A DNA stretch of 60,091 bases, taken from the IMG/VR virus record IMGVR_UViG_3300046095_000129, positions 1 to 60,091 of that record; one strand, written 5' to 3'. Both the position numbers and the translations under genes were made by a program. Numbering within the stretch: the stretch's first letter is position 1; each line of letters starts with the position of its first letter. Source of the stretch: a virus. Taxonomy: Duplodnaviria; Caudoviricetes. The notes beneath the pieces were generated by a model that saw only the letters and a list, made by a program, of their open reading frames with translations, did no database searches and was not told the DNA's origin. Below are positions 5,918 to 36,978 of the stretch, one piece after another.

Positions 5918-7462
5918 TTAATAGTATGCAGCTTGTCTGCCACGCCTGAATATTCTAGGCTCTTCTTTCTCATCAGACTCCAACGAGATGAATCCGCCTT
6001 GGCGGTAGCGTAGCAGCGCTTGTGTGGTGGTGTCAACGTAGTCGTCATGCTCCCCCACAGGGAACGCTGCCATTTCTTCTATAACCTCCCGTGCCCAACG
6101 GGTGTCTGGAGCCCATACTTTACCCGAAGTGAACAGGTCAGCTACGGCATTCATCCGCACCATTTTGTCGTTTCCCCGGCTGGGGGTGAACTCTTGCACA
6201 GGTATGCCCATTGCCCGGAGTTCTTGAATCAGAGGAGACCCGGCGGCTTTCTTCTCCACAATAATACTATCAGGTTCCCAATCTTTCCAGTGTTTCAGCG
6301 CTACGGATTTCAACTCTGGGAAGGCCATCCGGTCTTTAAACGCATCCAGCAGTATGAGTTGGGGGGAGCCGTTTTCTTCGTCGTTGTACCAAATCCCCCA
6401 TGTTGTGCACGCACTGTAGTCAGCGGTGGTCTTGGTCTCAAAAGCGGTGTCCCACGACTGTATGATGTACTCACACTTGGGCGCATCATCATGGGGCCAG
6501 ACTCGCCAATCTTTACGGGAGACCACTGCCGACATGTCTGATGTGGGCTGCTGCATGTACTGTGCGTTCCAATACCGAGGCTCCAAACTGGCTTTTTTCT
6601 GCAACATCGACTCCAGCGGCCACTGTTCAGGCCACAGGGCTTTACCCGAAGGCAGGATGGCGGGTAGCTCCACGATCTCCCACGGCATGGAGTCCGGGTT
6701 CTTGGTTTGGTAGTCAAGCAGCCGCCCGGTCAAGTCCAGTAGTGACCAACGGGTCATTACCACGATAATGGCTCCCCCCGGCATCAGTCGTTGTAGCGGC
6801 CCGGTCTGAAACCATGACCATGCCGTATCAAACGCCAAGCGGCTGTTGACCTTTATATCTTGCTCCGAATGCGGGTCATCAATGACGAATAGGTCAGCGC
6901 CGCGCCCAGCAAGTGCACCGCCAACACCCGCTGCGTAGTACTGACCCCCGGCTGTAGTTGACCATTTACCGGCGGCTTTTTGGTCGCTGGCAACAAGGGT
7001 GTTGGGGAAGATTTCATGGTACTCCTCCGAGTCAATTAAGTTACGTACTCGTCTGCCATAGTCTTCGGACAGGGACGCCGTGTGTGTCCCCATGATGATT
7101 TTCTTTTCTGGGTACTTGCCTAAGAAGTATGCAGGGAACAGGTAAGAGGCAAATTCAGATTTTCCGTGCCGAGGGGCTATGTTGACAATTACCCGTTTCT
7201 TGTTGCCCTCAATCACATCCGTAAATATCTTTGCCAGCTTGCGGTGATGGGGGCCAATCTTAAATCCGGGGTACACACCTTGAGCAAATCCCAAGGGGCT
7301 GTGTTTGGCGGCAGTTAGTCTGGCGCGTTCCTCACGAATACTCAAGTCATCAAATAGCTCAATCTTGTCCTGCAATGACATGGATGGCAAAGCGCGTTGG
7401 AGCGCTTCCAGTTCCACCTTACTTAGGCTGGTCAGTGTCTGTAGGTTCATTAACTGGGACAT
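5918..7462 (-). CDS. terL: Terminase large subunit
   Basis: Walker A IAPRHGKS, Walker B FVIDDPH, coupling motif VMTRW, nuclease SWDTA...HDDYVD; start may be 7450. Confidence 0.95.
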   Translation of the reverse strand: MSQLMNLQTLTSLSKVELEALQRALPSMSLQDKIELFDDLSIREERARLTAAKHSPLGFAQGVYPGFKIGPHHRKLAKIFTDVIEGNKKRVIVNIAPRHGKSEFASYLFPAYFLGKYPEKKIIMGTHTASLSEDYGRRVRNLIDSEEYHEIFPNTLVASDQKAAGKWSTTAGGQYYAAGVGGALAGRGADLFVIDDPHSEQDIKVNSRLAFDTAWSWFQTGPLQRLMPGGAIIVVMTRWSLLDLTGRLLDYQTKNPDSMPWEIVELPAILPSGKALWPEQWPLESMLQKKASLEPRYWNAQYMQQPTSDMSAVVSRKDWRVWPHDDAPKCEYIIQSWDTAFETKTTADYSACTTWGIWYNDEENGSPQLILLDAFKDRMAFPELKSVALKHWKDWEPDSIIVEKKAAGSPLIQELRAMGIPVQEFTPSRGNDKMVRMNAVADLFTSGKVWAPDTRWAREVIEEMAAFPVGEHDDYVDTTTQALLRYRQGGFISLESDEKEEPRIFRRGRQAAYY

Positions 7463-8018
7463 CCACTACGTCAATCACATGCATGAACTTGTTCAGTTTT
7501 TCTTTGATGCGCTGCTCCAGTTCGCTATCAGACATGTCGGCTTTCTTGATCTCCACACGTTCCGTAAATAGCGCCACCTCAGTTACCTTGCCCAGCATCT
7601 CCAACGCTTTGAGTCGGAAGCGGGTGTCGGGGTTTTTGGTTTCTTCAAGTATCTGTGACACGGCGTAGCCGCGAAGTTCTTTGGCCTGTTCTACAAAAGC
7701 CCAATCGTATGCTGTCAGCATCCCTACCAGATGTCGCACCGCTTGGGGTGTCTTGACGTTGGTGAGCGCCAACTTGGTGTCTTGGGGTGGGCCTCCAGCA
7801 ACCATCGTGGCAAATGCTGACCGCACTGCCTGTGAGTCCGCAGCCGTCTCAATCTCTTCGTCTGGGATAGCGCCGAGTTGTTTTAACCAATCTGCCGTTT
7901 TAACTTTGGCGTCGATGATGTCCGCAGCCGACTGATTGGCAATAGGGGTGACTACACTCCCGGCTGGGGTGTTTTCTATTTCGGGGTGGTATTCCCCGTT
8001 GATGAGGTGGTTAAACAT
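7419..8018 (-). CDS. Probable terminase small subunit
   Basis: Directly upstream of terL; RLKALEMLGK helix typical of TerS oligomerisation region. I prefer the start at 8018 (MFNHLI) over the track's 8150, which runs through a structured RNA. Confidence 0.6.
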   Translation of the reverse strand: MFNHLINGEYHPEIENTPAGSVVTPIANQSAADIIDAKVKTADWLKQLGAIPDEEIETAADSQAVRSAFATMVAGGPPQDTKLALTNVKTPQAVRHLVGMLTAYDWAFVEQAKELRGYAVSQILEETKNPDTRFRLKALEMLGKVTEVALFTERVEIKKADMSDSELEQRIKEKLNKFMHVIDVVDVPVNEPTDTDQPK

Positions 8019-8047
8019 AGGCAGTACGTAATAGTGTACACTCCTTT

Positions 8048-8124
8048 TTGAGTGGCGGTAGTTTCCGTTGCTTCTCCTTGATAGGTATACCCTGTCTTTA
8101 CCCCCCGCACTGGGGGGTTTTTTT
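8048..8124 (+). ncRNA. Putative trans-acting antisense small RNA
   Basis: TACACT -10 at 8037-8042; hairpins AGUGGCGG/CCGUUGCU, GAUAGG/CCUGUC and CCCCCC/GGGGGG followed by U7; G-U pairs work only on the + strand; 8061-8080 is complementary to several gene starts. Confidence 0.7.
8101..8124 (+). terminator. Intrinsic terminator of the putative sRNA
   Basis: CCCCCC-GCACT-GGGGGG-TTTTTTT. Confidence 0.85.
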
Positions 8125-8133
8125 ATGGCTACT

Positions 8134-8149
8134 TGTCTAACATTAGACA
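8134..8149. promoter_or_regulatory. TGTC-N8-GACA operator-like palindrome, copy 1
   Basis: TGTCTAA-CA-TTAGACA perfect inverted repeat; related copies at 14319 and 23896. Confidence 0.5.
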
Positions 8150-8396
8150 TAGTATGGGGTGGATTTTTATAATTTTTGTGGGGGGTGGTGCTTTGTTTTG
8201 ATAGGGGGTGGGTGCTGTGTAGGTTGCGTGTTTTGCAGAAATGTGCATTTGTATATTTCGTAGAAATATGGGGTATGGCTATGGATTAGTGTTGTTGTAT
8301 GAGCGGTGCAGCTTGGCCCCAAAGGGGGCTGGGGGTACGGTGGGGTCTGAGACTACTGCATTTCTACTCTCCTGAGATTACTGCAAATACCCCTTA

Positions 8397-8405
8397 TGGT
8401 ATAAT
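8397..8405 (+). promoter_or_regulatory. Extended -10 sigma70 promoter of the early region
   Basis: TGG-TATAAT at the start of the plus-strand arm. Confidence 0.7.
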
Positions 8406-8434
8406 AGAGGCATCGGTTGGGGGTTCCCGCCGAT

Positions 8435-8457
8435 AGAGGGAGAATGGTTCTCCCTCT
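8435..8457. repeat. 23-bp palindrome copy 1
   Basis: AGAGGGAGAATGGTTCTCCCTCT. Confidence 0.9.
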
Positions 8458-8484
8458 GGTACATCAATGTAATTAGGATTTATC

Positions 8485-8880
8485 ATGAAACTCAAATCTA
8501 CAGTAATCTCTCAGTTCATTCAGACTAATGCAGTGGCTTATGCTGCTGCTGCTGATGTGTTCCACACTATTGAGTCGAACACGTTTGCGGAGACCCTCGC
8601 TGCTTCCGGTGTTATCGGGGCGGATGTCAAGGTATTCGCAGTAGTCTTCGTAGCAAAGGAGTCAGGCGTTCTTCCCCATGAGTACCGGGGCGCATGGACA
8701 TTCACCAAAGACTCAGCAGAACATAGCAGAGTCAAGTACTTGGTGGCGGTGGTATCGGGTGCTGCGGCACGCAAAGCGGGGGCGCGCAAGAGCGCCAAGA
8801 TTGACCCCGTGGAAGTGCTGCTCAAGGGCTACAAGGCTTTGACCCCGGCACAGAAAAAGGCTTTCATTGCGGCCATCTAA
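8485..8880 (+). CDS. First early protein, hypothetical
   Basis: 131 aa, Ala-rich with a basic C-terminus; AGGA RBS; bracketed by palindromes. Confidence 0.8.
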   Translation: MKLKSTVISQFIQTNAVAYAAAADVFHTIESNTFAETLAASGVIGADVKVFAVVFVAKESGVLPHEYRGAWTFTKDSAEHSRVKYLVAVVSGAAARKAGARKSAKIDPVEVLLKGYKALTPAQKKAFIAAI

Positions 8881-8893
8881 GCCGCTATCAATC

Positions 8894-8916
8894 AGAGGGA
8901 GAACAGTTCTCCCTCT
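8894..8916. repeat. 23-bp palindrome copy 2
   Basis: AGAGGGAGAACAGTTCTCCCTCT. Confidence 0.9.
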
Positions 8917-9172: not shown

Positions 9173-9195
9173 AGGGGGAGAACTGTTCTCCCCCT
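9173..9195. repeat. 23-bp palindrome copy 3
   Basis: AGGGGGAGAACTGTTCTCCCCCT. Confidence 0.9.
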
Positions 9196-9842: not shown

Positions 9843-9865
9843 AGCGGGAGAACGGTTCTCCCCCT
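9843..9865. repeat. 23-bp palindrome copy 4
   Basis: AGCGGGAGAACGGTTCTCCCCCT, just upstream of the RBS of ORF 9880. Confidence 0.9.
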
Positions 9866-9879
9866 AAAAAGGAGCCGAT

Positions 9880-10668
9880 ATGGTCGAATCTTACGCAGCG
9901 CTAACGCCAAAAGCGTTAGCAAACCACCTTGCCAAGCGCAAAAAACCCCTTGTGTTGGTGCAGGCGATCCAAGAGCGTGCTGCCCAACAACGTGCGTTCA
10001 AGCGCTCCGACACGGGCACTAGGCGAACGCACAAGGAACTGTGGGGCAACCTGCTGTTCCCCCTGCGTTATGAGCGCAACAACGTGAAGGCTGGCATCAA
10101 GTATGCCGGTGGCGAAGCAAGGGGTGAAGCAATGCGCAGTTATCTCAGTGTGCTGGAGGAACTGCTCTACCGGCTGAACATGCACGCCACAGCCCGTATC
10201 CTGACCCCGCGCCAACTGTGCAAGGAGCGCAACGACTCGGGCCGAGGCGCACACATACCCAATGCGGGAACCCATTGGTCTGATTGGGTTCCGCAGCACA
10301 TCAAACTGAGGGTGTGTGTCCTGTTCGACGCCATTCCCTATAAACAGCGTGCGAAACGCAAGCTACCTTTCCAGCGTGCCATACCCCCGCTGTTGTACAG
10401 CAGGCTGTACGCAGCCCTTGGCTTGCGGACGCAGGGGTTCCTGAGTGCAGCACAGCGCAAGCATGCCGTTGCGCCCACAGAGGAGACAGCAGCCACTGTT
10501 GCAGCCATACAACACGCGCTGGCTGTCCTGAGAGAGTGGCCCCGCAACACAGCCCTGCCCTACGCATGGCAGAGCCTTGCGGCAACGACCAGTATCAAAC
10601 AGAGGGAGAACGGTTCTCCCCCTGCTGAAAGCGGACGACCGCCGCTGAAAGCGGACGACCGCCGCTGA
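9880..10668 (+). CDS. Basic early hypothetical protein
   Basis: 262 aa, AAGGAG RBS; the C-terminus reads through palindrome 5 and the tandem repeats. Confidence 0.8.
   Translation: MVESYAALTPKALANHLAKRKKPLVLVQAIQERAAQQRAFKRSDTGTRRTHKELWGNLLFPLRYERNNVKAGIKYAGGEARGEAMRSYLSVLEELLYRLNMHATARILTPRQLCKERNDSGRGAHIPNAGTHWSDWVPQHIKLRVCVLFDAIPYKQRAKRKLPFQRAIPPLLYSRLYAALGLRTQGFLSAAQRKHAVAPTEETAATVAAIQHALAVLREWPRNTALPYAWQSLAATTSIKQRENGSPPAESGRPPLKADDRR
10601..10623. repeat. 23-bp palindrome copy 5
   Basis: AGAGGGAGAACGGTTCTCCCCCT. Confidence 0.9.
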
Positions 10669-10686: not shown

Positions 10687-10724
10687 CAACGGGGGGGAAA
10701 CCCCCCATACCAAGGAGAAGTGAC

Positions 10725-11069
10725 ATGGGACTAGACATTCAGATATTGAGCGTACCTCGGGCAATGGCCTTGAAAGCCACCGATGTGCGGCTTGGCTCAC
10801 GCTACGACACGCACCCCCGATGGCAGCAAGTGGCCCACGAGCGCGACAACTGGGACTTGCACGCCTTGCTTGCTGCGCTCTATGCCGAGCGAGGCGGGAC
10901 GCAGGACGAGTTCAACAACACAACGGTGCGCCTGTACAAGCGCGACCTACGCCTGTTCCTTCAGACTTTTGAAGGAACTGTGGCCCCTGCCATTAGCCCA
11001 TCCACGGCAGCGCAGGTTATCGAACACATGAGAAAAGGGCGAGTTGTGTACGCCGAATCTAGTTTTTAA
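10725..11069 (+). CDS. Hypothetical protein (MGLD-start phage family)
   Basis: 114 aa, MGLDI...NWDLH...Y.ESSF pattern; strong RBS. Confidence 0.8.
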   Translation: MGLDIQILSVPRAMALKATDVRLGSRYDTHPRWQQVAHERDNWDLHALLAALYAERGGTQDEFNNTTVRLYKRDLRLFLQTFEGTVAPAISPSTAAQVIEHMRKGRVVYAESSF

Positions 11070-14318: not shown

Positions 14319-14358
14319 TGTCCAAGGCTTGACAAACCGTTTAGATATCGGATACGAT
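14319..14358 (+). promoter_or_regulatory. sigma70 promoter overlapped by TGTC-N8-GACA copy 2
   Basis: TTGACA 14329-14334, 18-bp spacer, TACGAT 14353-14358; TGTCCAAGGCTTGACA at 14319-14334. Confidence 0.7.
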
Positions 14359-14369
14359 AAACCCATAAC

Positions 14370-14392
14370 AGGTGGAGAACGGTTCTCCCCCT
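14370..14392. repeat. 23-bp palindrome copy 6
   Basis: AGGTGGAGAACGGTTCTCCCCCT just downstream of the predicted start site. Confidence 0.9.
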
Positions 14393-14410
14393 AACAATTT
14401 TGGAGAAGCA

Positions 14411-14617
14411 ATGAGTACCAATAAAACACCGTGGACTGAGGTTCTTAAACAATGGGAGCCTTCCGCTGGAAGCGAAGCGGCAACCGCCCCCACAATGGAG
14501 CAACAACTTGCCCCAGCAAGGGAGCAACGACTTGCTACGGCAAGCAACCTACTGATGTCCCTCAACGTGGTTGAGGCGCGTCTTTTGTACGATGAACTCA
14601 AGAAAGTTTTTAACTAA
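14411..14617 (+). CDS. Hypothetical protein
   Basis: GGAGAAGCA-ATG start at 14411. Confidence 0.75.
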   Translation: MSTNKTPWTEVLKQWEPSAGSEAATAPTMEQQLAPAREQRLATASNLLMSLNVVEARLLYDELKKVFN

Positions 14618-15588: not shown

Positions 15589-15625
15589 TTAACCGGGGGC
15601 TTCGGCCCCCACAACAGGAGAAGCA

Positions 15626-15820
15626 ATGATTACATTTATAAAGAACTACTTTCGCAGACCCACGCCACTGGAGATGGTTGCTAGGGAGTTGGCTGTAGCC
15701 CACCTGTGCAAGCTGGAGGCAGAGACAGCGGTGGACTACGCGGTATCAGTGGTGCGTTACAACGACACACGCATCAAACGGCTAGAGCAACACATCAACA
15801 ACCACAAGGAACAATCATGA
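15626..15820 (+). CDS. Hypothetical protein
   Basis: AGGAGAAGCA-ATG; preceded by a UUCG hairpin. Confidence 0.75.
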   Translation: MITFIKNYFRRPTPLEMVARELAVAHLCKLEAETAVDYAVSVVRYNDTRIKRLEQHINNHKEQS

Positions 15821-22287: not shown

Positions 22288-22299
22288 CACGGAGAAGCA

Positions 22300-23880
22300 A
22301 TGGAAATCATAGAAAACAAAGCACTGTTACTACGAACTCGTGACCCCGGTAAATACGGCATCATCCCCAAGAGTCGAGTCGTTGAGCAGCACGAAGACGG
22401 GTCGGCCTCGGTAGCAGTTTACTGGGGGCTGGAAGAAGCAAAGGTGCTTAGAAACTTGGGCGTCAAAGATGTACCCTCGCCCATAACCAAGCGCTATCAC
22501 TGGCCCGGACGGTACATACCGATGGCGCACCAGATTGAGACAGCCGGGTTCCTGACCATGAACCGCAAGGCGTTTTGTTTTAGTGAGCCGGGTACGGGCA
22601 AGACCCTGAGTGCGCTGTGGGCCGCAGACTACTTGATGTCACAGGGCGTAGTGCGAAGGTGTCTGATACTGTGCCCCCTGTCCATCATGCACAGCGCGTG
22701 GTTGTCGGACATGACCAGCAGCATCATCCATCGTTCTGCCATAGTCGCCCACCATGCTCAAGCTAGTCGGCGCATTGAGATGGTGCAGCAGAACTACGAG
22801 TTTGTCATTACCAACTACGATGGGCTGAACCTGATTGCGGACGAAGTGCGTAACGATGGGCGGTTTGATTTGGTGATTGCGGATGAGGCCAACGCCTACA
22901 AGATGCCCACTACCAAAAGGTGGAAGTCGTTGCAGAAAGTTGTCACACCTGACACGTACCTGTGGATGATGACCGGCACACCCGCTGCACAGTCTCCCGT
23001 AGATGCGTACGGGCTTGCCAAGTTCGTTAACCCCAACGGTGTGCCGAAGTTCTACACAGCATGGCGGGATCAGGTGATGAACAAAATCACGATGTTCAAA
23101 TGGGCTCCCAAACCAAGTGCGCCTGAGTCTGTGTTTGCTGCCTTGCAGCCTGCGATACGCTTCACCAAAGCACAGTGCCTTGACCTGCCGCCTGTCATCA
23201 CAATGGTGCGCGAAGTGCCGCTGACCCCACAGCAAAACAAGTACTACGTGATGCTCAAGGAACAGATGCTGGTGCAAGCCGCAGGGGAGACTATCACGGC
23301 TGTGAACGCTGCTGCGGGTGTGAGCAAGCTGTTGCAGATCAGTTGCGGGGCTGCGTATACAGACACAAAGGAAGTGGTGGAGTTCGACTCATCCCCACGC
23401 CTTGCTGTGTTGGAGGAAATACTAGGAGAGACACAGCGCAAGGTCATCATCTTTGCCTTGTTTCGTAGCACCATCTCAGCGATACACGCACACCTGTTGA
23501 AGCGGCACATAGCAACCGAAATGATCCACGGCGATGTACCCCCCATCAAACGGGGAGACATCATCAGGCGCTTCCAAAACGAGCCTGAACCAAGGGTGTT
23601 GGTGATGCAGCCAGCAGCATCCGCACACGGCATCACACTGACCGCTGCCGACACGGTGGTGTTCTACGGCCCCCTGATGTCTGTGGAGCAGTACACCCAG
23701 TGCATTGCCAGAGCAGACCGCAAAGGGCAGGACTCAGACAAAGTTACGGTGGTGCACATTCAGGGATCGCCCATAGAAAGACGCATGTTTAAAGCCCTTG
23801 GAGAAAAAGTGAGCGACCACTCTCTACTAACCAAGCTGTTCGACATTGAAATTAAAACAGGAAAGGGGTTGCAAATGTAA
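22300..23880 (+). CDS. SNF2-like superfamily 2 helicase
   Basis: EPGTGKT, VIADEAN (motif II variant), MTGTP, HGITLT, QCIARADRKGQ. Confidence 0.9.
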   Translation: MEIIENKALLLRTRDPGKYGIIPKSRVVEQHEDGSASVAVYWGLEEAKVLRNLGVKDVPSPITKRYHWPGRYIPMAHQIETAGFLTMNRKAFCFSEPGTGKTLSALWAADYLMSQGVVRRCLILCPLSIMHSAWLSDMTSSIIHRSAIVAHHAQASRRIEMVQQNYEFVITNYDGLNLIADEVRNDGRFDLVIADEANAYKMPTTKRWKSLQKVVTPDTYLWMMTGTPAAQSPVDAYGLAKFVNPNGVPKFYTAWRDQVMNKITMFKWAPKPSAPESVFAALQPAIRFTKAQCLDLPPVITMVREVPLTPQQNKYYVMLKEQMLVQAAGETITAVNAAAGVSKLLQISCGAAYTDTKEVVEFDSSPRLAVLEEILGETQRKVIIFALFRSTISAIHAHLLKRHIATEMIHGDVPPIKRGDIIRRFQNEPEPRVLVMQPAASAHGITLTAADTVVFYGPLMSVEQYTQCIARADRKGQDSDKVTVVHIQGSPIERRMFKALGEKVSDHSLLTKLFDIEIKTGKGLQM

Positions 23881-23911
23881 AAAAAACTACTACACTGTCC
23901 AACCCTTGACA
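23869..23911 (+). promoter_or_regulatory. Putative sigma70 promoter with TGTC-N8-GACA copy 3
   Basis: TTGCAA-16 bp-TACACT; TGTCCAACCCTTGACA at 23896-23911. Confidence 0.5.
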
Positions 23912-23930
23912 AAACTACATGGAGAAGCAA

Positions 23931-24341
23931 ATGGAAACAGAAGTGATTGAGGTGCTGCCGCTTGATCGGCTTGCCAAAATCTACCGTAAGATGCGTTCCG
24001 CAATTGAGGCCTTGACGAAAGAGTATGACACTCAAGTCGAAGCCATCAAGGAGCAGCAGGAGGGCGTGAAGAACGCCATGAAAGATCAGATGAAGGCGCT
24101 GGGCGTCACATCTGTGAAAACAGCAGAGGGCACGGTCATACTCTCCGTGAAGACCCGTTACAACACGCAGGATTGGGACTCGTTCAAACGATTCATCATC
24201 GAGAACGAAGCCGTTGACTTGCTGGAGAAGCGGATCGCACAGAGCAACATGGCGCAATTCTTGACAGAAAACCCCGGACTCGTACCTCCGGGACTCAACT
24301 CATCGTCTGAGTATGACGTAAGCGTACGCAAACCAACTTAA
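23931..24341 (+). CDS. Conserved coiled-coil replication-module protein
   Basis: GGAGAAGCAA-ATG start at 23931. Confidence 0.8.
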   Translation: METEVIEVLPLDRLAKIYRKMRSAIEALTKEYDTQVEAIKEQQEGVKNAMKDQMKALGVTSVKTAEGTVILSVKTRYNTQDWDSFKRFIIENEAVDLLEKRIAQSNMAQFLTENPGLVPPGLNSSSEYDVSVRKPT

Positions 24342-25315: not shown

Positions 25316-25436
25316 TATGTTGCTGGGGTACAAGCAGCGGTCGCATTACGTGGGTCGGGGTTCGTAGATTCCTCGTTAATTGATACATGCATATCCACGA
25401 CTGCGTTTCCTGACTTGTACCCCACACTTAATACCT

Positions 25437-25715
25437 ATGGCCTACTCACAAAAAATTATCGGACTTGTGGCGTCCACCCCTAAAACACTGGGCAACCAGC
25501 TAGGGCGGTGGGCAGTCCATCTCGATTTTCCCGTAACCAAGATAGCCCGTTCACTGGGTGTTACCCGTCAAACAGTTTATAACTGGTTCACAGGTACTGA
25601 AGTGTTCGTTGGCTATCGTGGGCGCGTGGAACTGCTTTTAAAAATTATGCAAGCATCATCCACAGCAGATGAAGCATGGAGAAAAATATGCAAGGAATAC
25701 AACCTCAAACCCTGA
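25437..25715 (+). CDS. Cro/CI-like helix-turn-helix protein
   Basis: VTKIARSLGVTRQTVYNWF. Confidence 0.85.
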   Translation: MAYSQKIIGLVASTPKTLGNQLGRWAVHLDFPVTKIARSLGVTRQTVYNWFTGTEVFVGYRGRVELLLKIMQASSTADEAWRKICKEYNLKP

Positions 25716-28804: not shown

Positions 28805-28994
28805 ACGGGGGCAGGGGTTTTTCATCCCCTGCCTTGATATTGAGGCGGTAAGGGAGGAGGGGCTAAAGAAAGCGCTCTCCCTCCGCATGCTGGATGCCCG
28901 TGGTGTTACAGGCATCCGCAAGGGGTTTACGGGCGTGTGGTTCTATCGGTTAGCCGTTCGAAACTCACCGCAATCCGGTTCTGTTCCACCTTGA
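28764..28994 (+). CDS. Small conserved protein ending the replication arm
   Basis: YPW...GQGFFIPC...G.WFYR; overlaps the convergent giant ORF by 68 nt. Confidence 0.6.
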   Translation: MMPLVIRYPWRLIERGQGFFIPCLDIEAVREEGLKKALSLRMLDARGVTGIRKGFTGVWFYRLAVRNSPQSGSVPP

Positions 28995-31900
28995 TCCTGT
29001 CCAGCATGGTGTCCTTCTGCGCCGTGGTCATCGTGGGGTGCGCCCGTATCTTGCGTTCCACCGCATACAACTCGCCCAAGCGTTTGAATGTTTGCCCGGA
29101 CGTAGCGGCAGCAGCTAGTTCATTGGCGTAGCGTTGTGCAAACGCTGCGGCTTCCGCACGTTGCCCACGTTCCACCATGTTCACATAGGTCTGTCGTGCT
29201 TGTTGGATTCGTTCCATGTGGTCATAGGCCGCATCAAGATCACCACGCCCTTCAGCCGACTGAAAAAACCCTCCAATAAAGGGCTGTTTGTTCAACGGCA
29301 CAGAGGCTTTCTCTCCTGTGCCACTGGCCCCTAACAGCGGATCAAAAACTTGCAGCAGCGCCACACCCAAGCCGCCTGTGTACCCACGCACAAGGTGCGT
29401 CAGCATGATGGGCGACACGCCTGCCATCCCGGTTAGCGACCCGGCTATGCGTAGCGCTTCGGGTGTCGTGTCTTTGAACCGATACTCGGCCTGTATCTTT
29501 TTCTCTCGTTCAGACTCAATTGGGCCAACGGTAGTGCTTCCGTAAAACGCCTCCAGCACAGGCTTGGCGGCTGCTGGGACTACGCCCGGAACCGATTGCG
29601 CCAACACACCACCCATACCTTTAAGAGCATCGCGTGCTTTTGTATCCCGGAAAACAAGGTCAATTATCATTTGCGGCAGTGCAACAAAGATCGCCCCAAC
29701 CTCGTATGGAATAGGTACTTTGAGCGGTTCTTTAAGCCCCGGTAATGGCATGAACAGGTTGCTGTAGCGCTCCTGCGGAGTTGCTTTCTTGTACGCCTTG
29801 TCGTCCTGCATCATGGCAGCGTACGCCATAACACCAACAGTCAACATCGCCCCCCGTGCGTACAGCTTGCGCTTCAAGTCTAGTTGTTCAGAGAACGGCA
29901 GCTTGCCCTCCCGCGCCCGGTTCAACAAATCCAAGCCCTGCACTTGGGAATTAAAAAACGGAATCATCGTACTCAACATATGCATGCTGGGCGACAAGCC
30001 GTGCCGACCGAAGTTCTGAGATTCGGCTGCGCGAAGCTGCGCCCTAAACTCAGACATCCCTTTTTTCAACCCGTCTTGATAAACAGTGGCGCGGGTAGCA
30101 GCGTCTGTCTGCAAGGCAAACGTATCCAGCGCCCCCATTGTTTTTTTCCACCAGTTCTTGCCGGTGGCAATGCTCTCAATGAACTGCTGCATGTCCCGCT
30201 CATTGCCGCTGAACACGTTGCTGCTAACCACCAACCCACCACTGAGCGCATCCTCGGCAGTGCTCGTGCCCATCCGCATTTTGCCAAGCTCTTTCAAGGC
30301 ATTGAGTATGGGAACGCCATCTACGCCAGACAGTATGGCGGCGTTTATAGGGTCGCGGACAAGCTGGCGAAACGGATACACAGGAGCGCGGGTGACAAAC
30401 TTACGCACCAAATCTGCCGGGTAACCCAACGCACGCACAAGGATGGGGATGGTGGTTTTGATCCCCGACATCCCCGCAACAATTAGTTCCGCAGGTATGC
30501 CAAAGGTGTCTGAGTCAATCGTTGCAAAATGCGGCTTACCCTTTTGGCGGTAGCGCACCGTATCTTTAGAATCAATCCCCTGCCCTACACCCATTTTGGA
30601 AACAAACCCCGCCTTGAACAGCGCGTTGCTTGACTCTAACGCCTCTTTGTTTTGCATTGACAAGCGTATGAGCATGTACGTGTTCTGCACCGCGCTTGTA
30701 AAAATAGGCAGGATCGTTTGCTCAGACCCCAGCATGCGGACGAGTTCCTTGTCGTTTGAGATGTCCCCTATGCGGATGGCAGTTTCAGAATCCGAGTACA
30801 GCTTGACAACCCCGTCCTCAATCCGATAGAACGGCACAAACGGCGTCTTCTTCAGTCGGGCAACTTCTTCTGCACTGAGTAAGTCGTGCTGTTCTGCAAA
30901 ATCTAACAGGCCGCCGTTGAACTGTTTGTACTCCAGCAGGGCGGCATCCATGTACTTCTTGGCCGTGGGGTTTGTTTGTAGAGATGCAACGGCGTTTTCA
31001 TATTCAACCTTGGCCTCCGCAGCCTTCTTGCCAGCCAACCGCTCCCACCCATTGGGCACAGCGTCAGCACGTTGCCCCGCAGCAATCCGGGTAAGCATCA
31101 TCTCCCCGTCTTTAACCCCCGACTGCTCAACAAGCTCTGCCACACGCACCATATGAGCGCCAGCCTTGCGTGCATAACCGTACTCGCCTGATTTCATCAC
31201 TATGCTGATGGGCCCGTACGACAGGAACTGACCCACGGCTTGCGAAACTTTGTCCGTCATCCGCATGAAATAACTGGCTTGGAACAGTTCGTTGTTGGTC
31301 ATCTTGCCTGCTTTTTCAGCCGCAGCAAACGCTTCTTCCCTAGCCGCTTTTGAGTCTATGTATTGCATCCGTCCAGCCAACCCCAAGAAGTTACCCCGGA
31401 AAGTTGTCAGCGCATCAGGGCTGCTGCCAATAAACACCGACTGTGTTTTTGCAAAACTTGGCGTTGCTGCACTGTCCACTTGCTGGCTAGACGGCATGAA
31501 GATGTTGTCGATGGCAAGAATAGACGCATCCAGCATGTTGTCCACAGTCTTGGGGTCGATGCCAATGGCACGCAAGATAACACTCTTGAACGCCTGTAGC
31601 ATGTCCGACAGACGCCATGACCGCGCCTTCAACTGTTCTTGCAGCCGTTGGTTTGACATGACTTCGGCCACGAACTCTTTTAACGTCTTTTTGGCATTGA
31701 CGCTGGTAACACCGGGGTCTTTCTTAATCATCGCGTGGATAGCCATAAGCTCTCTTATGGCGGCACGTTGGGTGTCCGTAAGCTGGCTTGGGTCTTTGTC
31801 ATACATGTCGATCACACGGTCAGCGCCAGCGTGTGTGCCCTCATGCAGCAGCGCCTCCTGATTCAGCCCCCCGTTGCGGCTTAAGTACACCGCCTTCTTG

Positions 31901-34900
31901 TAGAACATACCAATGGCTTCTTCGCCTTTGCTGTCCACAATCGTGTCCTGCACAGTAGAATCTGTGTCATCCAACAACAGCGACAGCCGCCGTGCAACAG
32001 CTTTGTTAAGGGCATCCGACCCCTTGTCATTGGCAATATCTGTTAGCGCCCCTTCAAGCTCATTGTTGGCAACCAAATCGATCTGTGTTGGGGACAGGTC
32101 ACGGCTGTACCCTTCGACCCCACGCGAAAAACTTCCGTCTTTTGGTATGGAACCGCTTCCTTGGTAGCGTCTAATCTCACTTGTGCTGTCGCCTTTTTCT
32201 TTTGCAACAGCCACTAGGGTTTGGTTGAGGTCTTTTATTTCTTTTTTCAGGGCTACTTCTTGTATATTAAGCTCCTGCATTGTTTCAGTAAGACGCCCCT
32301 TAACCTTGTCTTTGTTGTTTTCGCGTAAGAAAGTTTGCCTCCGTTGCACTTCAGCAAGCTCGGCTCTTTTGGCTATCAGCGTCTCCATAGCAGCAACACC
32401 CGTTGAACCCATTTGCGCTGTTGCAGATGGGGCTCCTGTTTGCGTAACTTGGTTGTTTTTGCCGTATGCCACGGCTCCTTTTTGCGTAGCAGGTAGTCTG
32501 GCTGCAATCTCCCCCTTTGCGGTTTGTTCGCGTTCGGCCCTTTCTGCTGCGTCTAAAAACAATTTAACAAAATCAGCTTTTTCTTCAGGGTTGATTTCTG
32601 TAATAAGCCGGGATGCTTTTGTACGTACATTAGCCAGTTTGTCTTTTGCAACGGTTAATGCTTTCCGCAACACTGTTTTTTTAACAGGGTCTTTTTCTTC
32701 CTTTATTGCGGCTGGAGCAGCAGCTATTTCACTACGTAAACCCTGTATTTCGGCGCGCAACGCAGACGCAACTTCCGTAACACGCACGCCGGGGAGATCA
32801 AGCCCCTCTCGTCCAGCTTGGATGCTTTCAGCATACGTCTTTGTTGGCTTGGGTGTTGTCTCGTCCTGTTTTGCGGCAGCATCTGCAACTGCTTGACGGG
32901 CCGTTTCCAAGGCTGCTTTTGCTTTTTCTGCTTCTTTGGTTGCTGCGCGCGCGTCTTGTTTGGCTATCTTTGTCAGGGTTCCTGTGGATGCGTTTTCCAC
33001 AAGCAGCAAGTTGTTAAATTTAGCACGCGCTTTTATCACCATTTTTTGTGCGTCTGCAATGTACCGCTCTGTCTCTGCAATCTCTTTAACAAACGGATCG
33101 GAAGAGTGCAGTTGGTTCAGTGCTGCACGCATGGAAGCCCTTTCGCTCGTCGATATTCCTACGTTGTTTACGGTGTTTTCTAATCCCATTTCTTGCAAAA
33201 GTTGTACAAAAGTCTGTTTGGCTGCGGGGTCGCCTTGCAGCAGTAAGATGCCTTCCCGCAAAGAACGTAACTCGGCCAATTCCATTGGAACGCTTTGCAA
33301 GGCCGATTCCAAATCAGACACTTCTCGCACTGCCTTGGCAAACCACACAGGCTCCCCACCAACTAAAGCAATCGTTTCTTTGGCTGCTTTTGCTTTTTGT
33401 AAAGCACGCTTGTGTTGTGTTATTGCGGTACTCAGTGCGTTCTGCACATCCTGCGTTTGTTTTTTTAGTGCCCCGTTTGTCTTTTTAATCTTGTCTTTAA
33501 GGGCTGCAACTGTTTTTGAACCCAACAGCTTTTGAAAACGTTCTTTTGTGCTGCGTACCGTTTGAACAGGGCTTGTGTCAAACAGTTCTAGTTGAGGCTG
33601 TGCACTGGTGCGCTGCAAGTCTGCCAGCGTGGCTCCGGGCTGCGTGCCACTAGCGCCTTCTCTTTCTTGAAACTTTATCGCAGCTTGCAGTTCCAAAACT
33701 GCATTGGGGCTGGGCAAGTTGCCCTCCAAGACCTGTTGCGCTTGCTGCCGTGCCAGAGTAATTATGTCTGGATCGTTTATTTTGGGCAGTGCCTCGGCCA
33801 GTTGCTCTAACAGCGCTTGTGTTGCAGGGTCGGTGCGTGCCGACACCCCCCCGCTTTTTTCTGCGGCAAACAACTGAGCAATGTCTTGCAGACTGCCTAC
33901 TCTTTCCGGGGCTACTTTCTCGGTTGTAGGTACGGCACGAGTTCTGGTTTTGACGGTGCTGAGTACTGACTCAATCAGATTGAGCGCATCTTGTTTCTCA
34001 TTGCTTGCCCGATACGGCGTGCCTTTTAGTTCCAATGTAGCTGGCGCAGCAATTCGTTTTCCTTCTAATGGTGCTGATGGCAAAGGCGTTCTACGCCCTT
34101 GAGCATCCTCATAGTAGTTTGTGGCAGGCTTAGTTATTTTTTCTTGTAGTTCTGCGGTTTGTTTTGGTAGTAAACGGGCTGCGGCCTTTTGCAAGTTGTC
34201 CGTTACGTTGTTCCGCATCTGCTCTTGAATAGCAAGTGCTGCCGCATGCCGAGACTCAAACACATTCCAACGATCTTGCAGTTCATTAAAGCCTTCCATG
34301 ACCCGCGCACGGGCATCTGCGGCTTCCCATGTCGCCATTTCTGGAATACCAAACGCTTTGCGTCTGCCGTTTATTTCTGCCGCATGGGCGGCGGCGTAGG
34401 TTTCTTTGGCTTTGTCAAATTGCGTTTTGATTGCCTTTTCAGGGTCTAAAGATAGCGTGCGAACGCGATTAAACCGCAAGTTGTTTAAAATCTTGACCGT
34501 GTTTACCAGCACGTTGTTCTGCTTGTCGGCTTGCATGTCCGCATTTGCTTCCGCAGCACGCCCCTCCTCTAACGTGCCAAACCCCAATGCCGACTGCAAC
34601 CCCGTGGTAAGTGTCCCCCGCGCCGCCGTGTCTTTTTTACGGGCGTCTTGTAGGTCGGCTACTAGCGTTGCTTGGGCTTCCTTATTTCCTGTAAGCCGCG
34701 CTATTTGGAATTTAGCTTGTAGATCGTTGAGCGTGCGTTGGGGAGAAAAACCCAACCCCTGTTGTATTTGCCCCGGAGTTACGGTAGCGGCCTTGGGCAG
34801 TGTTGCAACAAGCTGTTCTATGGCTGGGATGTCGGCTAGAGTTTCTGGTTCTGTTTCGGGCAAGGCTTCTTGGGTACGCAATGCTTGAAACCCAGCCAAC

Positions 34901-36978
34901 GTGCCCGGTTCCGCAGAACGAAACGGTTTCTGCGCTTCTCGTTCAGCCGCAGTGGTGGCGATGTTTGCATTGGCAAGGTCTTCATTGGACTGCCGAAGCA
35001 GTGCCAACGGGTCTTTGGAGACTGTTGGTTTTTGACTTGCTAACAGATTCGTAGCAGCGTCTGCTTCGTCTTTATCTATTGACCGCTGCTCTGCACGCAA
35101 GCCCTCTATGTAACCGGGTTCTGTAAGAGATCGCTGAACAATCGGTGTGTTTTTAGGAATCCCGTACGATTTGATTTCTTCTTCAAGCGCATCAATCTGT
35201 GCAACAAGCCGGTCTGCTTTAACCGGGTCAAACCCTTCCCCAGCCATGGCTTTAAGTTTTTTCTTAGCCGTATCCAGTTTCTGCTGTGTTTGTGCGGCAA
35301 CATTTTCTGGGGACTGCACTCCGCCTAAATCAGCCAGTTTGTTGGTGACGTAATCCAACTCGGTCTGTAGTTTCTTGCGCTCCCCGCTGAGTTGTTTGAT
35401 TGCTGCCGTATCCGCATCACTAGCCGCATCCGATGCTGCGGTCTGGTTGTATTCCAAAAGCCGTCTGACTTCTTGTTGCTTTGTGGCAAAGTCTGTAATC
35501 AACGCTTGGTTGTCTACATCAGGCGCGGGTGCTGGAGGCTGCTCTACGGCATCCATTCCGGGCAGAGTTGCCTGCGGGGCTTCAAAATACGGTTGCTTTT
35601 GGGCGTCCTGCGCGACATCAGTTTGAGCCCCAGTCTCTATTGCCTGCATCCGGTCGGTTTCCGCAGTATCTAAAAGAGGCTTACCTCTGCGGTATTCTTT
35701 AGCTGTCTCTGTGAGTACTACAGCGTTTTCTTTAAGCTGTATTACAGTTTCTTTGTTTGCTTGCTTGTCTACTTCCGTCAGGGGTTTGTCTTTAGTGCCC
35801 TTAATTATTTGAGCAAGCAGGTCAGCTTTATTCTTTTCGGCTGCAAAGTATGCTTGCTCCGCCTGTTTAGCATATGGAAGGGTTTGTTTGTCGGCTTCCA
35901 GTTGGGCAGCGGCAGCGTCCTGTTGGGCTTTCTGGGCTAGGTTGGCTTCTGCATTTGCTTGTATTTTTTGTTGAGCAGTTACATCTCGGGCATTGCTGCG
36001 TTCTTTTAAAGCAAACCCGCCCCCAAGCGGAGCCGCCAGTGCCATGTTTAGCGCTGTGTTGCGGTACTGCGTGATGGCTTCATCGTCTGCAAGAGGTTTG
36101 CCAATAGCCGCACGGTCTATGACATCTTGGAAAATCTCAGTGGGCAACTCACCAATGGCAAACCGCCCCGTACCGTAGCCAATCGCAGCCATAGTGCCGC
36201 GCCCAGCGGTCTTGGTAGCTTCGGCCATCAGCGCTGCACGAGCCGCATCGCCCGATTCCTCTGCCACTCTCTGACCAATGGCTTTCTTAAAGATACCCGG
36301 CATTGCAATGCGCGTACCAACTAGATTGGCTGCGGCATTGGCTGCTGCATAGGGCGCAAGCTCCAGTGCATTAACGTCTGGTTTTTCCCCGGCTTCTATT
36401 TGGGTCTGTACTTTTTCTTGTGCTTGGCTACCCAGTGCTTGAATAGCATTGACAATCAAAGGAACCGCATACTGCCCAACGGTTGCCCCGAGGGCGGCTC
36501 CGCCGGGAATAGGAAGCACAGCCCCCAGCGCTCCAAACCCCACCCTGCCAAGTGCAGCCGATCCTATTTCTTGCCCAACAGACGGAAGCAGTCCAGCAAT
36601 GGCAGACGGCACTTGACTGATGGCTTCTCCAGCAGCGCCAAAGTACTCCCCGCTGTTGAACTTGTCTACGATTTTCTGTGGCTGAAACCCCGGCGTGTAT
36701 GCTTTTGCCGCTTCTTCTTGGCGTTTGGCCCCCTCCATTGCGGCAGCAGTGGTGTCCCCTGTGAGAGCGCCCAGACCCGTACGCCCAATATTCAGTAGGT
36801 TTTTGGCACTGGATTTAACATCCGCCAACAGCCCTGTTTCGGGTTTGGGGCCTTCTACCGGTGCAATACTTGCCAAATGTGTTTGCAACGCCCGAATAAC
36901 TTGAGCGTCAGAAGCCCCGTCTGGCCCCTCAATGGAATAGGTGCGCCCGTCAGGGCCGTCTACGTTGTATATACGCAT
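28927..36978 (-). CDS. Giant (2,683 aa) virion-injected polyvalent protein with zincin-like HExxH and LPD38-like C-terminus
   Basis: ALLHEGTHA...EFVAE; C-terminal IPFFNSQVQG...KVPIPYEVG; helical and Ala-rich; last gene of the virion arm. Confidence 0.75.
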   Translation of the reverse strand: MRIYNVDGPDGRTYSIEGPDGASDAQVIRALQTHLASIAPVEGPKPETGLLADVKSSAKNLLNIGRTGLGALTGDTTAAAMEGAKRQEEAAKAYTPGFQPQKIVDKFNSGEYFGAAGEAISQVPSAIAGLLPSVGQEIGSAALGRVGFGALGAVLPIPGGAALGATVGQYAVPLIVNAIQALGSQAQEKVQTQIEAGEKPDVNALELAPYAAANAAANLVGTRIAMPGIFKKAIGQRVAEESGDAARAALMAEATKTAGRGTMAAIGYGTGRFAIGELPTEIFQDVIDRAAIGKPLADDEAITQYRNTALNMALAAPLGGGFALKERSNARDVTAQQKIQANAEANLAQKAQQDAAAAQLEADKQTLPYAKQAEQAYFAAEKNKADLLAQIIKGTKDKPLTEVDKQANKETVIQLKENAVVLTETAKEYRRGKPLLDTAETDRMQAIETGAQTDVAQDAQKQPYFEAPQATLPGMDAVEQPPAPAPDVDNQALITDFATKQQEVRRLLEYNQTAASDAASDADTAAIKQLSGERKKLQTELDYVTNKLADLGGVQSPENVAAQTQQKLDTAKKKLKAMAGEGFDPVKADRLVAQIDALEEEIKSYGIPKNTPIVQRSLTEPGYIEGLRAEQRSIDKDEADAATNLLASQKPTVSKDPLALLRQSNEDLANANIATTAAEREAQKPFRSAEPGTLAGFQALRTQEALPETEPETLADIPAIEQLVATLPKAATVTPGQIQQGLGFSPQRTLNDLQAKFQIARLTGNKEAQATLVADLQDARKKDTAARGTLTTGLQSALGFGTLEEGRAAEANADMQADKQNNVLVNTVKILNNLRFNRVRTLSLDPEKAIKTQFDKAKETYAAAHAAEINGRRKAFGIPEMATWEAADARARVMEGFNELQDRWNVFESRHAAALAIQEQMRNNVTDNLQKAAARLLPKQTAELQEKITKPATNYYEDAQGRRTPLPSAPLEGKRIAAPATLELKGTPYRASNEKQDALNLIESVLSTVKTRTRAVPTTEKVAPERVGSLQDIAQLFAAEKSGGVSARTDPATQALLEQLAEALPKINDPDIITLARQQAQQVLEGNLPSPNAVLELQAAIKFQEREGASGTQPGATLADLQRTSAQPQLELFDTSPVQTVRSTKERFQKLLGSKTVAALKDKIKKTNGALKKQTQDVQNALSTAITQHKRALQKAKAAKETIALVGGEPVWFAKAVREVSDLESALQSVPMELAELRSLREGILLLQGDPAAKQTFVQLLQEMGLENTVNNVGISTSERASMRAALNQLHSSDPFVKEIAETERYIADAQKMVIKARAKFNNLLLVENASTGTLTKIAKQDARAATKEAEKAKAALETARQAVADAAAKQDETTPKPTKTYAESIQAGREGLDLPGVRVTEVASALRAEIQGLRSEIAAAPAAIKEEKDPVKKTVLRKALTVAKDKLANVRTKASRLITEINPEEKADFVKLFLDAAERAEREQTAKGEIAARLPATQKGAVAYGKNNQVTQTGAPSATAQMGSTGVAAMETLIAKRAELAEVQRRQTFLRENNKDKVKGRLTETMQELNIQEVALKKEIKDLNQTLVAVAKEKGDSTSEIRRYQGSGSIPKDGSFSRGVEGYSRDLSPTQIDLVANNELEGALTDIANDKGSDALNKAVARRLSLLLDDTDSTVQDTIVDSKGEEAIGMFYKKAVYLSRNGGLNQEALLHEGTHAGADRVIDMYDKDPSQLTDTQRAAIRELMAIHAMIKKDPGVTSVNAKKTLKEFVAEVMSNQRLQEQLKARSWRLSDMLQAFKSVILRAIGIDPKTVDNMLDASILAIDNIFMPSSQQVDSAATPSFAKTQSVFIGSSPDALTTFRGNFLGLAGRMQYIDSKAAREEAFAAAEKAGKMTNNELFQASYFMRMTDKVSQAVGQFLSYGPISIVMKSGEYGYARKAGAHMVRVAELVEQSGVKDGEMMLTRIAAGQRADAVPNGWERLAGKKAAEAKVEYENAVASLQTNPTAKKYMDAALLEYKQFNGGLLDFAEQHDLLSAEEVARLKKTPFVPFYRIEDGVVKLYSDSETAIRIGDISNDKELVRMLGSEQTILPIFTSAVQNTYMLIRLSMQNKEALESSNALFKAGFVSKMGVGQGIDSKDTVRYRQKGKPHFATIDSDTFGIPAELIVAGMSGIKTTIPILVRALGYPADLVRKFVTRAPVYPFRQLVRDPINAAILSGVDGVPILNALKELGKMRMGTSTAEDALSGGLVVSSNVFSGNERDMQQFIESIATGKNWWKKTMGALDTFALQTDAATRATVYQDGLKKGMSEFRAQLRAAESQNFGRHGLSPSMHMLSTMIPFFNSQVQGLDLLNRAREGKLPFSEQLDLKRKLYARGAMLTVGVMAYAAMMQDDKAYKKATPQERYSNLFMPLPGLKEPLKVPIPYEVGAIFVALPQMIIDLVFRDTKARDALKGMGGVLAQSVPGVVPAAAKPVLEAFYGSTTVGPIESEREKKIQAEYRFKDTTPEALRIAGSLTGMAGVSPIMLTHLVRGYTGGLGVALLQVFDPLLGASGTGEKASVPLNKQPFIGGFFQSAEGRGDLDAAYDHMERIQQARQTYVNMVERGQRAEAAAFAQRYANELAAAATSGQTFKRLGELYAVERKIRAHPTMTTAQKDTMLDRIKVEQNRIAVSFERLTDRTTRP

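Follow-up and report, generated by a model that had tools for sequence, protein, structure and literature searches.

Positions 8050-8124 of the virus record IMGVR_UViG_3300046095_000129 (Caudoviricetes) are predicted to form a conserved, structured RNA gene on the + strand. The window, by which we mean the whole stretch of DNA analyzed, is the complete record of 60,091 bp and carries direct terminal repeats. The predicted gene sits in the divergent region that separates a minus-strand late block, opened by terS, from a plus-strand early block. We propose, with a probability of roughly 55%, that its product is an undescribed trans-acting small RNA (sRNA) which would silence the phage's own early genes by pairing with their ribosome-binding sites. 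RNA structure, strand, invariance of the pairing segment (the seed), promoter and terminator motifs, complementarity to early genes and its conservation, and co-variation of seed and targets were all computed and are presented below together with the alternatives that compete to explain them.

Structure of the predicted RNA

The predicted RNA is about 75 nt long (8050-8124, + strand). It would begin at G8050, placed 7-8 nt past a -10 hexamer, and end in a U7 tract. Folding of the + strand from 8040 to 8127 with RNAfold produced three hairpins with a free energy of -31.7 kcal/mol (z -4.03), and none of 200 shuffled sequences was as stable. The minus strand of the same stretch reached -24.2 kcal/mol (z -2.35).

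Hairpin 1 (8050-8073, GAGUGGCGG / UAGUUU / CCGUUGCUU) consists of nine pairs between the arms 8050-8058 and 8065-8073, four of which are G·U, and it masks the 5' part of the seed. The seed itself, UUGCUUCUCCUUG (8068-8080, + strand), is invariant or nearly so among relatives. Its bases CUCCUU (8074-8079) are single-stranded between hairpin 1 and hairpin 2 (8080-8096, GAUAGG / UAUAC / CCUGUC), the latter formed by the arms 8080-8085 and 8091-8096 with one G·U pair. The third hairpin belongs to an intrinsic terminator (8100-8124, + strand) identified by a terminator scan, in which ACCCCCCGCACTGGGGGGT forms a stem of 7-8 pairs with the loop GCACU and is followed by T7. An earlier sequence-only reading of this region had described a TACACT -10 box, three hairpins, and a U7 terminator on the + strand, divergent from terS, and all are present. 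It had also counted four G·U pairs in hairpins 1 and 2 that work only on the + strand. Their strand dependence was confirmed, while the number is five, four in hairpin 1 and one in hairpin 2.

The RNA, which the sequence-only reading had not recognized as a described family, matched no Rfam family: a search of the whole window against Rfam 15 returned no hits at gathering thresholds. With permissive filters applied to 7950-8250, the best scores were 22.5 bits for NsiR1 (threshold 39) and 21.9 bits for anti-hemB (threshold 49.5), and both came from the terminator region. Assembled contigs from four metatranscriptomes covered small shares of the window, on the late genes of relatives, and practically none of 8008-8341. 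As such contigs show neither strand nor transcript ends, they are silent on expression of the sRNA.

Conservation of the RNA gene and its strand

Relatives were gathered by TerL and TerS searches of viral contigs, which yielded hundreds. The sRNA unit was present in 103 of the 104 terS-bearing loci that had at least 420 nt of upstream sequence. A simple signature (a regular expression) detected 101 of these, and the other two, L049 and L061, carry a variant seed. The sole locus without the unit, L048, is a 7.9-kb contig in which everything between the early-promoter palindrome and terS that makes up the unit is gone, a natural deletion. The unit was also carried by four distant genomes (G011, G012, G013, and G015; terS 49-56% identical) and by one contig binned in a metagenome-assembled genome (MAG). 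It was not found within 2.5 kb of terL in the cultured relatives HTVC027P, DSL-LC04, or MinM2, where synteny differs, and blastn of 7400-8500 against phage records gave no match.

The 74 unique variants share one order of elements, namely hairpin 1, an exposed UCUCCUU, hairpin 2, the terminator, and a T-run. Hairpin 2 forms at this place in every variant, through 33 distinct sequences, and the 50 distinct terminator hairpins are always followed by at least 5 T (7 in the window). A strict script test of this architecture, which demanded that UCUCCU be unpaired in the minimum free energy structure, was passed by 61 of the 74. The printed structures of the remaining 13 show the same hairpins, with only the first seed base paired or with two weak extra pairs. 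Comparison with relatives thus supports both the discrete + strand RNA gene of the sequence-only reading, with its promoter-like -10, three hairpins, and terminator, and the exposure of the sequence that complements Shine-Dalgarno (SD) motifs in the gap from hairpin 1 to hairpin 2, with the remaining seed bases masked in the G·U-rich hairpin 1.

In a MAFFT alignment of 67 unique variants, mean column identity over the whole RNA was 50%. The only invariant block was 8068-8080, in which T20 and C23-T30 (8068 and 8071-8078) never change and T21, G22, T31, and G32 are conserved in at least 90% of the variants. The nine pairs of hairpin 1 across these variants provide 603 cells, distributed as 343 Watson-Crick, 240 G·U, 4 A·C, and 16 other. 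Because 240 G·U cells stand against 4 A·C cells, hairpin 1 exists on the + strand only; its helix is 96.7% paired there and 57.5% paired on the terS strand. The value of 96.7% compares with 90.6% in shuffles (0 of 500 as high) and with 37-70% for slid partners, and RNAalifold recovered the hairpin 1 stem unaided. Likewise, the T-run always lies 3' of a GC hairpin on the + strand, while on the terS strand it becomes an A-run 5' of the stem and makes no terminator. A role solely as the minus-strand leader of terS, which the sequence-only reading had kept as the case against itself, is contradicted by the same excess of G·U over A·C.

These observations also bear on whether there is an RNA gene here at all. 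The region adjoins terS, a frequent place of pac and cos sites, and the palindromes AGTGTACACT and TGTCTAACATTAGACA are close by, as might be expected of a packaging or operator site; the hairpins could otherwise be a chance cluster in the terS leader. We judge such a DNA element or chance cluster to be extremely improbable, since G·U-dependent pairing is impossible in DNA or on the other strand, the stems are compensated throughout the 33 versions of hairpin 2 and 50 of the terminator, and the fold is stable relative to shuffles (z -4.0). Two features by which trans-encoded sRNAs are recognized were instead found: a predicted independent unit closed by a Rho-independent terminator whose U tail, 7 nt in the window, reaches the minimum of 6 nt expected of such RNAs, and a conserved accessible seed, the block 8068-8080.

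Complementarity to early gene starts

Both strands of the window were scanned for complementarity to 8050-8099. The longest run, 17 contiguous pairs including two G·U, covers the SD, spacer, AUG, and codon 2 of the gene for an SNF2-type helicase (gene 22300-23880; site 22291-22307, + strand), with a cofold energy of -18.6 kcal/mol. The second target is the start of the following gene (23931-24341), which encodes a 136-aa protein similar to Gp157 and Pam3 gp33. There, 10+7 pairs around one bulge (23921-23938, + strand) gave the best cofold energy, -19.1 kcal/mol. Three further + strand sites are candidate targets. They lie at the starts of open reading frame (ORF) 10725-11069 (10711-10724; 14 pairs, two of them G·U, cofold -16.9 kcal/mol), ORF 15626-15820 (15616-15628; 13 pairs), and ORF 14411-14617 (14402-14413; 12 pairs, chance level alone), the last of which is the first gene past an operator-bearing promoter. 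Complementarity of 8061-8080 to these five sites had been the central claim of the sequence-only reading, and the counts of 17, 10+7, 13, 12, and 14 pairs were re-derived.

Its further claim, that complementarity is concentrated on the starts of early and replication genes, was also upheld. Among SD-like start regions in the window, at least 11 contiguous pairs were found in 7 of 56 early and 1 of 50 late regions, and the corresponding figures over 10 genomes were 63 of 465 and 4 of 363. When the non-SD flank of the seed was shuffled, early starts with at least 11 pairs averaged 1.45, compared with the 7 seen (P=0.002). The + strand of the early region contains 17 runs of at least 12 bp, 6 of them ending no more than 10 nt from a called start, and GGAGAAGCAAYG with at most one mismatch occurs 5 times versus 0.65 expected. 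In full cofolding, which charges for the opening of hairpin 1, ORF 23931, the helicase, and ORF 10725 ranked first, and an energy of -16 kcal/mol or lower was reached by 3 of 84 start regions compared with 1 of 700 random mRNA-sense windows. Shuffling the seed does not give a valid control for cofolding, since hairpin 1 is lost and the shuffled sequences bind more readily (24.8 "binders" versus 11).

Conservation of predicted targets and co-variation with the seed

The helicase gene keeps the motif GGAGAA(A)GCA-AUG in five of the six genomes with an ortholog, and the gene for the Gp157/Pam3 gp33-like protein keeps it in six of six, in both cases despite diverged sequence upstream of the motif. 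In the same six-genome comparison, polA, the primase, the nuclease, DUF932, and other neighbors had 4-11 pairs, never above 11. A wider set of 78 loci provided 40 unique helicase starts. At least 9 pairs with the invariant 12-nt seed were present in 26 of the 40 (54 of the 78 loci), compared with 1 of 800 control windows. Segments following the helicase stop behaved similarly, with at least 9 bp to the invariant seed in 40 of 51 unique cases. The regulon of five genes put forward in the sequence-only reading therefore stands in part: the helicase and the next gene are well conserved as targets, and the other three occur as such in a close relative only or not at all. The site of ORF 10725 is not kept in G001 or G003 (7 and 8 bp), and an ortholog of ORF 15626 was found only in the close relative G001.

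Seed and target sites also change together. Gene starts in the relatives were called by simple rules, and the site comparisons rest on counts of a motif plus a start. Three genomes with an extra U in the seed (GCUUUCUCC) hold 19 GGAGAAAG sites versus 3 of GGAGAAG[CT]. The balance is the opposite in seven genomes whose seed is of the standard form, at 6 GGAGAAAG versus 38 GGAGAAG[CT]. The window and G006 taken alone give counts of 6/0 versus 1/13 (p=1.8e-4), and the orthologous sites of the helicase and the next gene show the inserted A as well. In G004 and G011, where the seed reads CAUUUGC, most sites are GCAAAUG and form duplexes of 16-18 bp, and in G015 (seed UUGUUUCUCC) 5 of 14 sites carry GGAGAAAC. 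An 11-genome matrix of seeds against early start regions placed the diagonal above permutations (P=0.0016), with a genome's own seed ranked first in 5 of the 11 and among the top three in 7. Co-variation across relatives was the test that the sequence-only reading had set for itself, and both the permutation result and the extra base shared by seed and sites in a sister clade agree with it. By computation, a third feature of trans-encoded sRNAs is thus present, namely several start regions paired by a seed that co-varies with them, with 3 of the 11 genomes showing no preference for their own seed.

The sequence of the seed raises the question of host targets. The exposed CUCCUU copies the 3' end of 16S rRNA, the U-rich linker together with the terminator hairpin and U7 looks like the module through which enterobacterial sRNAs bind Hfq, and the seed is invariant across phages even though their own sites vary. 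The RNA could accordingly pair with host mRNAs whose AAGGAG sites are strong, or its pyrimidine-rich loop and U-tail could titrate a host RNA-binding protein such as Hfq or S1. We find this distinctly unlikely, as the conserved part runs 6-7 nt past the anti-SD bases into spacer-complementary bases that match phage sites, and clade-specific changes of the seed are mirrored in those sites.

A phage protein might also read both. The box GGAGAA(G/A)GCAA would then be what this protein, for instance a nuclease or translational repressor, recognizes in sense orientation in early mRNAs and in the terS leader, and the hairpins would be secondary. Box and sites do change together, and the box is oriented towards terS as it is towards the early genes. 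There is precedent in T4, whose RegA and RegB read start-region motifs on many early mRNAs (PMC3014915). Such a protein would leave unexplained the helix restricted to the + strand (240 G·U versus 4 A·C), the + strand terminator with its conserved T-run, and the + strand promoter; no candidate protein was identified, and we rate this explanation as very unlikely.

Promoter signals and the terS leader

A perfect 10-bp palindrome, AGTGTACACT (8033-8042, both strands), precedes the predicted RNA and holds two TACACT hexamers that resemble -10 elements. One lies on the + strand (8037-8042) and would serve the sRNA; the other lies on the minus strand (8038-8033) in the direction of terS, the pair sharing 2 bp. 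Across the 59 unique contexts of this promoter in relatives, the + strand hexamer is conserved as T59 A59 C55 A59 C55 T59, with TTG exactly 17 nt to its 5' side in 52. In the terS direction, TTGC is found 18 nt upstream of the -10 in 54 of the 59. The four distant genomes have TTGAAA, TTGCAA, or TTGCGG, then 17 nt, then TACACT, TATAGT, or TATATT. The clade of the window (7 of the 59 contexts) lacks both TTGs, about 45 nt being missing between the palindrome and terS. The sRNA promoter of the sequence-only reading thus has a conserved TACACT -10 and, in the clade to which it was applied, no -35 TTG. Since the two -10 hexamers overlap by 2 bp, polymerase can hardly hold both at once, which suggests that synthesis of the sRNA and late transcription are linked through the shared palindrome.

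On the minus strand, terS (7419-8018) is the first gene of the late operon. Its listed ORF, 7419-8150 (ATG 8150, 243 aa), would cover the sRNA unit and was rejected as an open-frame artefact: the N-terminal extension is open in the window and broken in relatives. Upstream of the conserved MFNHLING/MLEHLING start, the frame contains stops or frameshifts in L087-L091 and in more distant relatives. Because of this, we assign the true start to ATG 8018 (199 aa), and 8019-8484 is therefore non-coding. No SD sequence was present upstream of terS in any relative inspected.

Read on the terS strand, the seed region resembles an SD, spacer, and start codon (CAAGGAGAAGCAA-YG). The sense strand of the window reads AAGGAGAAGCAACG, with ACG in place of a start, out of frame with terS. 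An ATG follows this sense box in 56 of 87 unique leaders. Of these frames, 16 are in frame with terS, 23 stop within -20 to +10 of the terS ATG, and 17 end elsewhere. Another 29 leaders, the window included, have no start codon (ACG, ACA, ACU, or AGC), and one (L048) has no box. Among the distant genomes, G011 has ATG-TAA, and G012, G013, and G015 have no start codon. The reading frame of the box relative to conserved blocks varies by clade. An upstream ORF started at the sense box was considered and rejected as a family-wide feature, being missing in a third of leaders; a sense-strand ORF may exist in one sub-clade. The frequent non-ATG variants ACG and ACA correspond to CGU and UGU in the sRNA, which keep their pairing with AUG through wobble.

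This arrangement is the basis for a purely local role of a real RNA, either as cis-antisense to a late-mRNA leader that would run across it from a more distant start or through promoter competition at the palindromic -10, with its likeness to early sites a by-product. The sRNA gene lies directly upstream of terS on the opposite strand, and conserved promoter-like pairs point both ways (TTG-17-TACACT and TTGC-18-TACACT) with -10s that overlap by 2 bp. Of the 56 leaders with an ATG after the box, 39 have frames that fuse with terS or stop within -20 to +10 of its ATG. Given that terS has no SD and that these frames end near it, the box could drive translation of terS in part of the family, and the antisense RNA could block it. 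In contrast, the box lacks a start codon in 29 of 87 leaders, including that of the window (ACG), and in three of the four distant genomes, and where the frame does exist neither the peptide nor the position of the stop is conserved. By inspection only, no sigma-70-like promoter in the terS direction lies upstream of the sRNA gene. A local role also fails to explain a 13-nt invariant block amid drift, or the way in which variants of the seed follow the early ribosome sites of the genome that carries them. We consider it unlikely, though the most probable of the alternatives.

Considerations against silencing of early genes

Several points weigh against the proposal that the RNA silences early genes in trans. 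When G·U pairs are allowed, 76 runs of at least 12 bp occur genome-wide, and matches of 12-14 bp are for that reason not individually significant. Early genes as a class have stronger AAGGAGAA sites, which inflates the early/late contrast, and the flank-shuffle P, which ranges from 0.002 to 0.48 per genome, is weak in G002, G003, and G008 (0.16, 0.44, and 0.48). Conservation of the targets is likewise incomplete. Of the 40 unique helicase starts, 14 are without the motif, among them that of G013, which nevertheless has the sRNA, and for three of the five proposed targets conservation does not reach past the closest relative.

The co-variation has its own weaknesses. A genome's own seed ranks first in only 5 of 11 cases and sixth to eighth in G015, G012, and G002. 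The pattern rests on few independent lineages, as the genomes are related and the statistics ignore kinship, and it could reflect one protein that reads box and sites, or recombination that homogenizes both. The -35 TTG is missing in the clade of the window, where expression may be weak or need another factor. Finally, we infer from sequence that the RNA is produced, that it pairs in vivo, that it represses, and when it would do so.

Genome setting and other features of the early region

The phage belongs to a large group of uncultured freshwater phages whose closest cultured kin are HTVC023P-type pelagiphages. By TerL (about 50% identity), its nearest cultured relatives are the Pelagibacter phages HTVC027P and HTVC023P and the lake phage DSL-LC04, with 65-kb Planktothrix and Synechococcus phages also among them. 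Relatives by TerL in MAGs were small contigs from mixed phyla and gave no consistent host assignment.

The late block runs on the minus strand from terS through terL, which adjoins it and matches Terminase_6, to the portal gene, around the record ends, and on to 28927. It ends in ORF 28927-36978 (minus strand, 2,683 aa), which converges on the end of the early block. The early block (8485 to 28804, + strand) encodes DNA polymerase A, a PD-(D/E)XK nuclease, the SNF2-type helicase, and a primase/helicase. A scan of 27 window proteins, which included PHROGs and was not exhaustive, turned up neither an integrase nor a repressor, and no tRNAs were found in the window.

Just 3' of the sRNA terminator is an early promoter, TAGACA-18-TATAAT (8144-8173, + strand; 11 of 12 consensus matches), whose -35 is covered by the operator-like palindrome TGTCTAACATTAGACA (8134-8149). 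The combined element, 8134-8173, is conserved in relatives. The operator-like inverted repeat TGTCNAANNNTNGACA occurs three times in the window (8134-8149, 14319-14334, and 23896-23911) versus 0.03 expected. The second copy covers a TTGACA some 80 nt upstream of ORF 14411, just past a terminator, and the third is found in the interval from the helicase stop to ORF 23931. Relatives conserve the repeat at the first and third places. A dimeric phage regulator probably binds it. Three early transcription units are marked by the repeat, and predicted sRNA targets stand first in two of them. ORF 25380-25715 (+ strand, 111 aa) has a weak match to HTH_23 (E 4.5e-5, below the curated cut-off). As the sole DNA-binding candidate among the small early ORFs scanned, it might be the protein that reads the TGTC...GACA palindromes.

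A second consensus-like promoter, TTACTG-17-TGGTATAAT with an extended -10 (8378-8408, + strand), was read by eye, as the promoter scan demands more -35 matches. It lies about 75 nt upstream of the first early gene (8485) and about 230 nt downstream of the first early promoter, and the G-rich stretch between the two promoters is conserved in relatives. The early region also contains six copies of an intergenic hairpin, AG(R)GGGAGAAC-N-GTTCTCCC(Y)CT (GGAGAA / 3-nt loop / UUCUCC), versus 0.1 expected, at 8439-8453, 8898-8912, 9177-9191, 9847-9861, 10605-10619, and 14374-14388. Its 3' arm repeats the UUCUCC of the sRNA seed. The close relative G001 has two copies of the hairpin, and 12 further related genomes have none.

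Proposed mechanism and known systems

If the RNA does act in trans on early genes, host RNA polymerase would transcribe it from the -10 TACACT at 8037-8042 and stop at the U7 terminator. The single-stranded CUCCUU would serve as a toehold that nucleates on the SD of matching early mRNAs, and pairing would then extend into the spacer and start codon as the weak, G·U-rich hairpin 1 is displaced. Its chief targets would be the SNF2 helicase and the next gene, joined by small early genes that differ from clade to clade. The duplex would keep the 30S subunit off the mRNAs, which would probably also be marked for decay, and hairpin 2 and the terminator would act as a stabilizing, chaperone-type 3' module.

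Phages are known to use short antisense RNAs. The sar RNA of P22 and the OOP RNA of lambda have their own promoter and terminator, and sar blocks a ribosome-binding site by pairing with it. The predicted RNA is similarly short (about 70 nt), structured, terminator-ended, and opposite the leader of a regulated operon, and blocking of ribosome-binding sites is proposed here as well. Unlike sar, which pairs perfectly with the real ribosome-binding site of an overlapping transcript, the predicted RNA overlaps a strand that has no start in the window or in 29 of 87 leaders, and the sites matched by its conserved seed lie at a distance of 2-16 kb, on the sRNA's own strand. A functional ribosome-binding site and start on the opposite strand, as sar has, are lacking in the window (ACG) and in G012, G013, and G015.

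The c4 RNA of P1 and P7 and the CI RNA of P4 are processed from the transcript they control and act within the same operon. Like the predicted sRNA, they are phage RNAs with exposed sequences complementary to ribosome-binding sites. In contrast to them, the element described here brings promoter-like and terminator signals of its own, and the targets proposed for it are spread over several early transcription units. These candidates follow other promoters, namely 8144-8173 and the operator-bearing regions near 14319-14334 and 23896-23911, and the sRNA does not look processed from a target transcript as c4 and CI are. Passages of a review name sar, and for c4 they describe loop-exposed sequences that pair around the ribosome-binding site, a few bases setting the specificity that underlies heteroimmunity (PMC12197685).

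A functional parallel is found in T4, in which RegA is a translational repressor and the endonuclease RegB cuts GGAG in early SD sites, as described in passages of PMC3014915. In both cases, as proposed here, a lytic phage shuts off many early mRNAs at their starts through a shared motif that contains the SD, and the sRNA would be the RNA counterpart of this protein-based early shut-off. The difference is that the reader here would be an RNA, with base-pairing specificity that can co-evolve base for base. Bacterial Hfq-type sRNAs, and Gram-positive sRNAs whose pyrimidine-rich seeds bind the SD, offer a parallel in form, having their own promoter, a Rho-independent terminator with a long U tail, and an invariant, accessible seed that pairs imperfectly at several gene starts. 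At the level of sequence, the predicted RNA resembles these trans-encoded multi-target sRNAs in its own transcription signals, U tail, invariant seed, and several matching start regions. It differs from them in being phage-encoded, in being aimed at the phage's own genes, and in having a seed that is an extended anti-SD copy.

Literature searches did not uncover a described counterpart. A term search of a paper on HTVC023P-type pelagiphages returned no small RNAs, promoters, or terminators in the text it covered (PMC9599517), and the passages of the review that treat sar, c4, and others contain nothing resembling this sRNA (PMC12197685). A PAK_P3 small RNA, reportedly proposed to bind ribosome sites, did not come up in a term search of PMC4933390. 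Overall, no equivalent RNA was described in the full-text literature searched, which did not cover supplementary files.

Implications

To our knowledge, the regulatory RNAs of lytic phages are barely known, and the phage antisense RNAs described so far that we are aware of (sar, OOP, c4, and CI) act on one neighboring operon each, in temperate phages. We tentatively, at somewhat less than even odds, extend the proposal to the whole group: lytic freshwater phages of this abundant family may run early shut-off by means of one sRNA whose seed co-evolves base for base, including a matched insertion of one base, with the address carried by its targets, and the palindrome would link this silencer to late transcription as an RNA-based early/late switch. 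Roles in latency control or superinfection immunity, which the sequence-only reading had also offered, are not supported.

Correction of the terS start and a new RNA family would both be of use in the annotation of viral metagenomes. The natural seed variants GCUUCUCC (type A), GCUUUCUCC (type B), and GUUUCUCC, together with their matching sites, constitute a ready-made specificity series, through which the proposal can be tested in a reporter system without the uncultured host. If it is true, these phages possess an sRNA family of more than 70 variants aimed at the starts of several of their own replication genes, and would time early-gene translation by an RNA instead of by proteins such as RegA and RegB.

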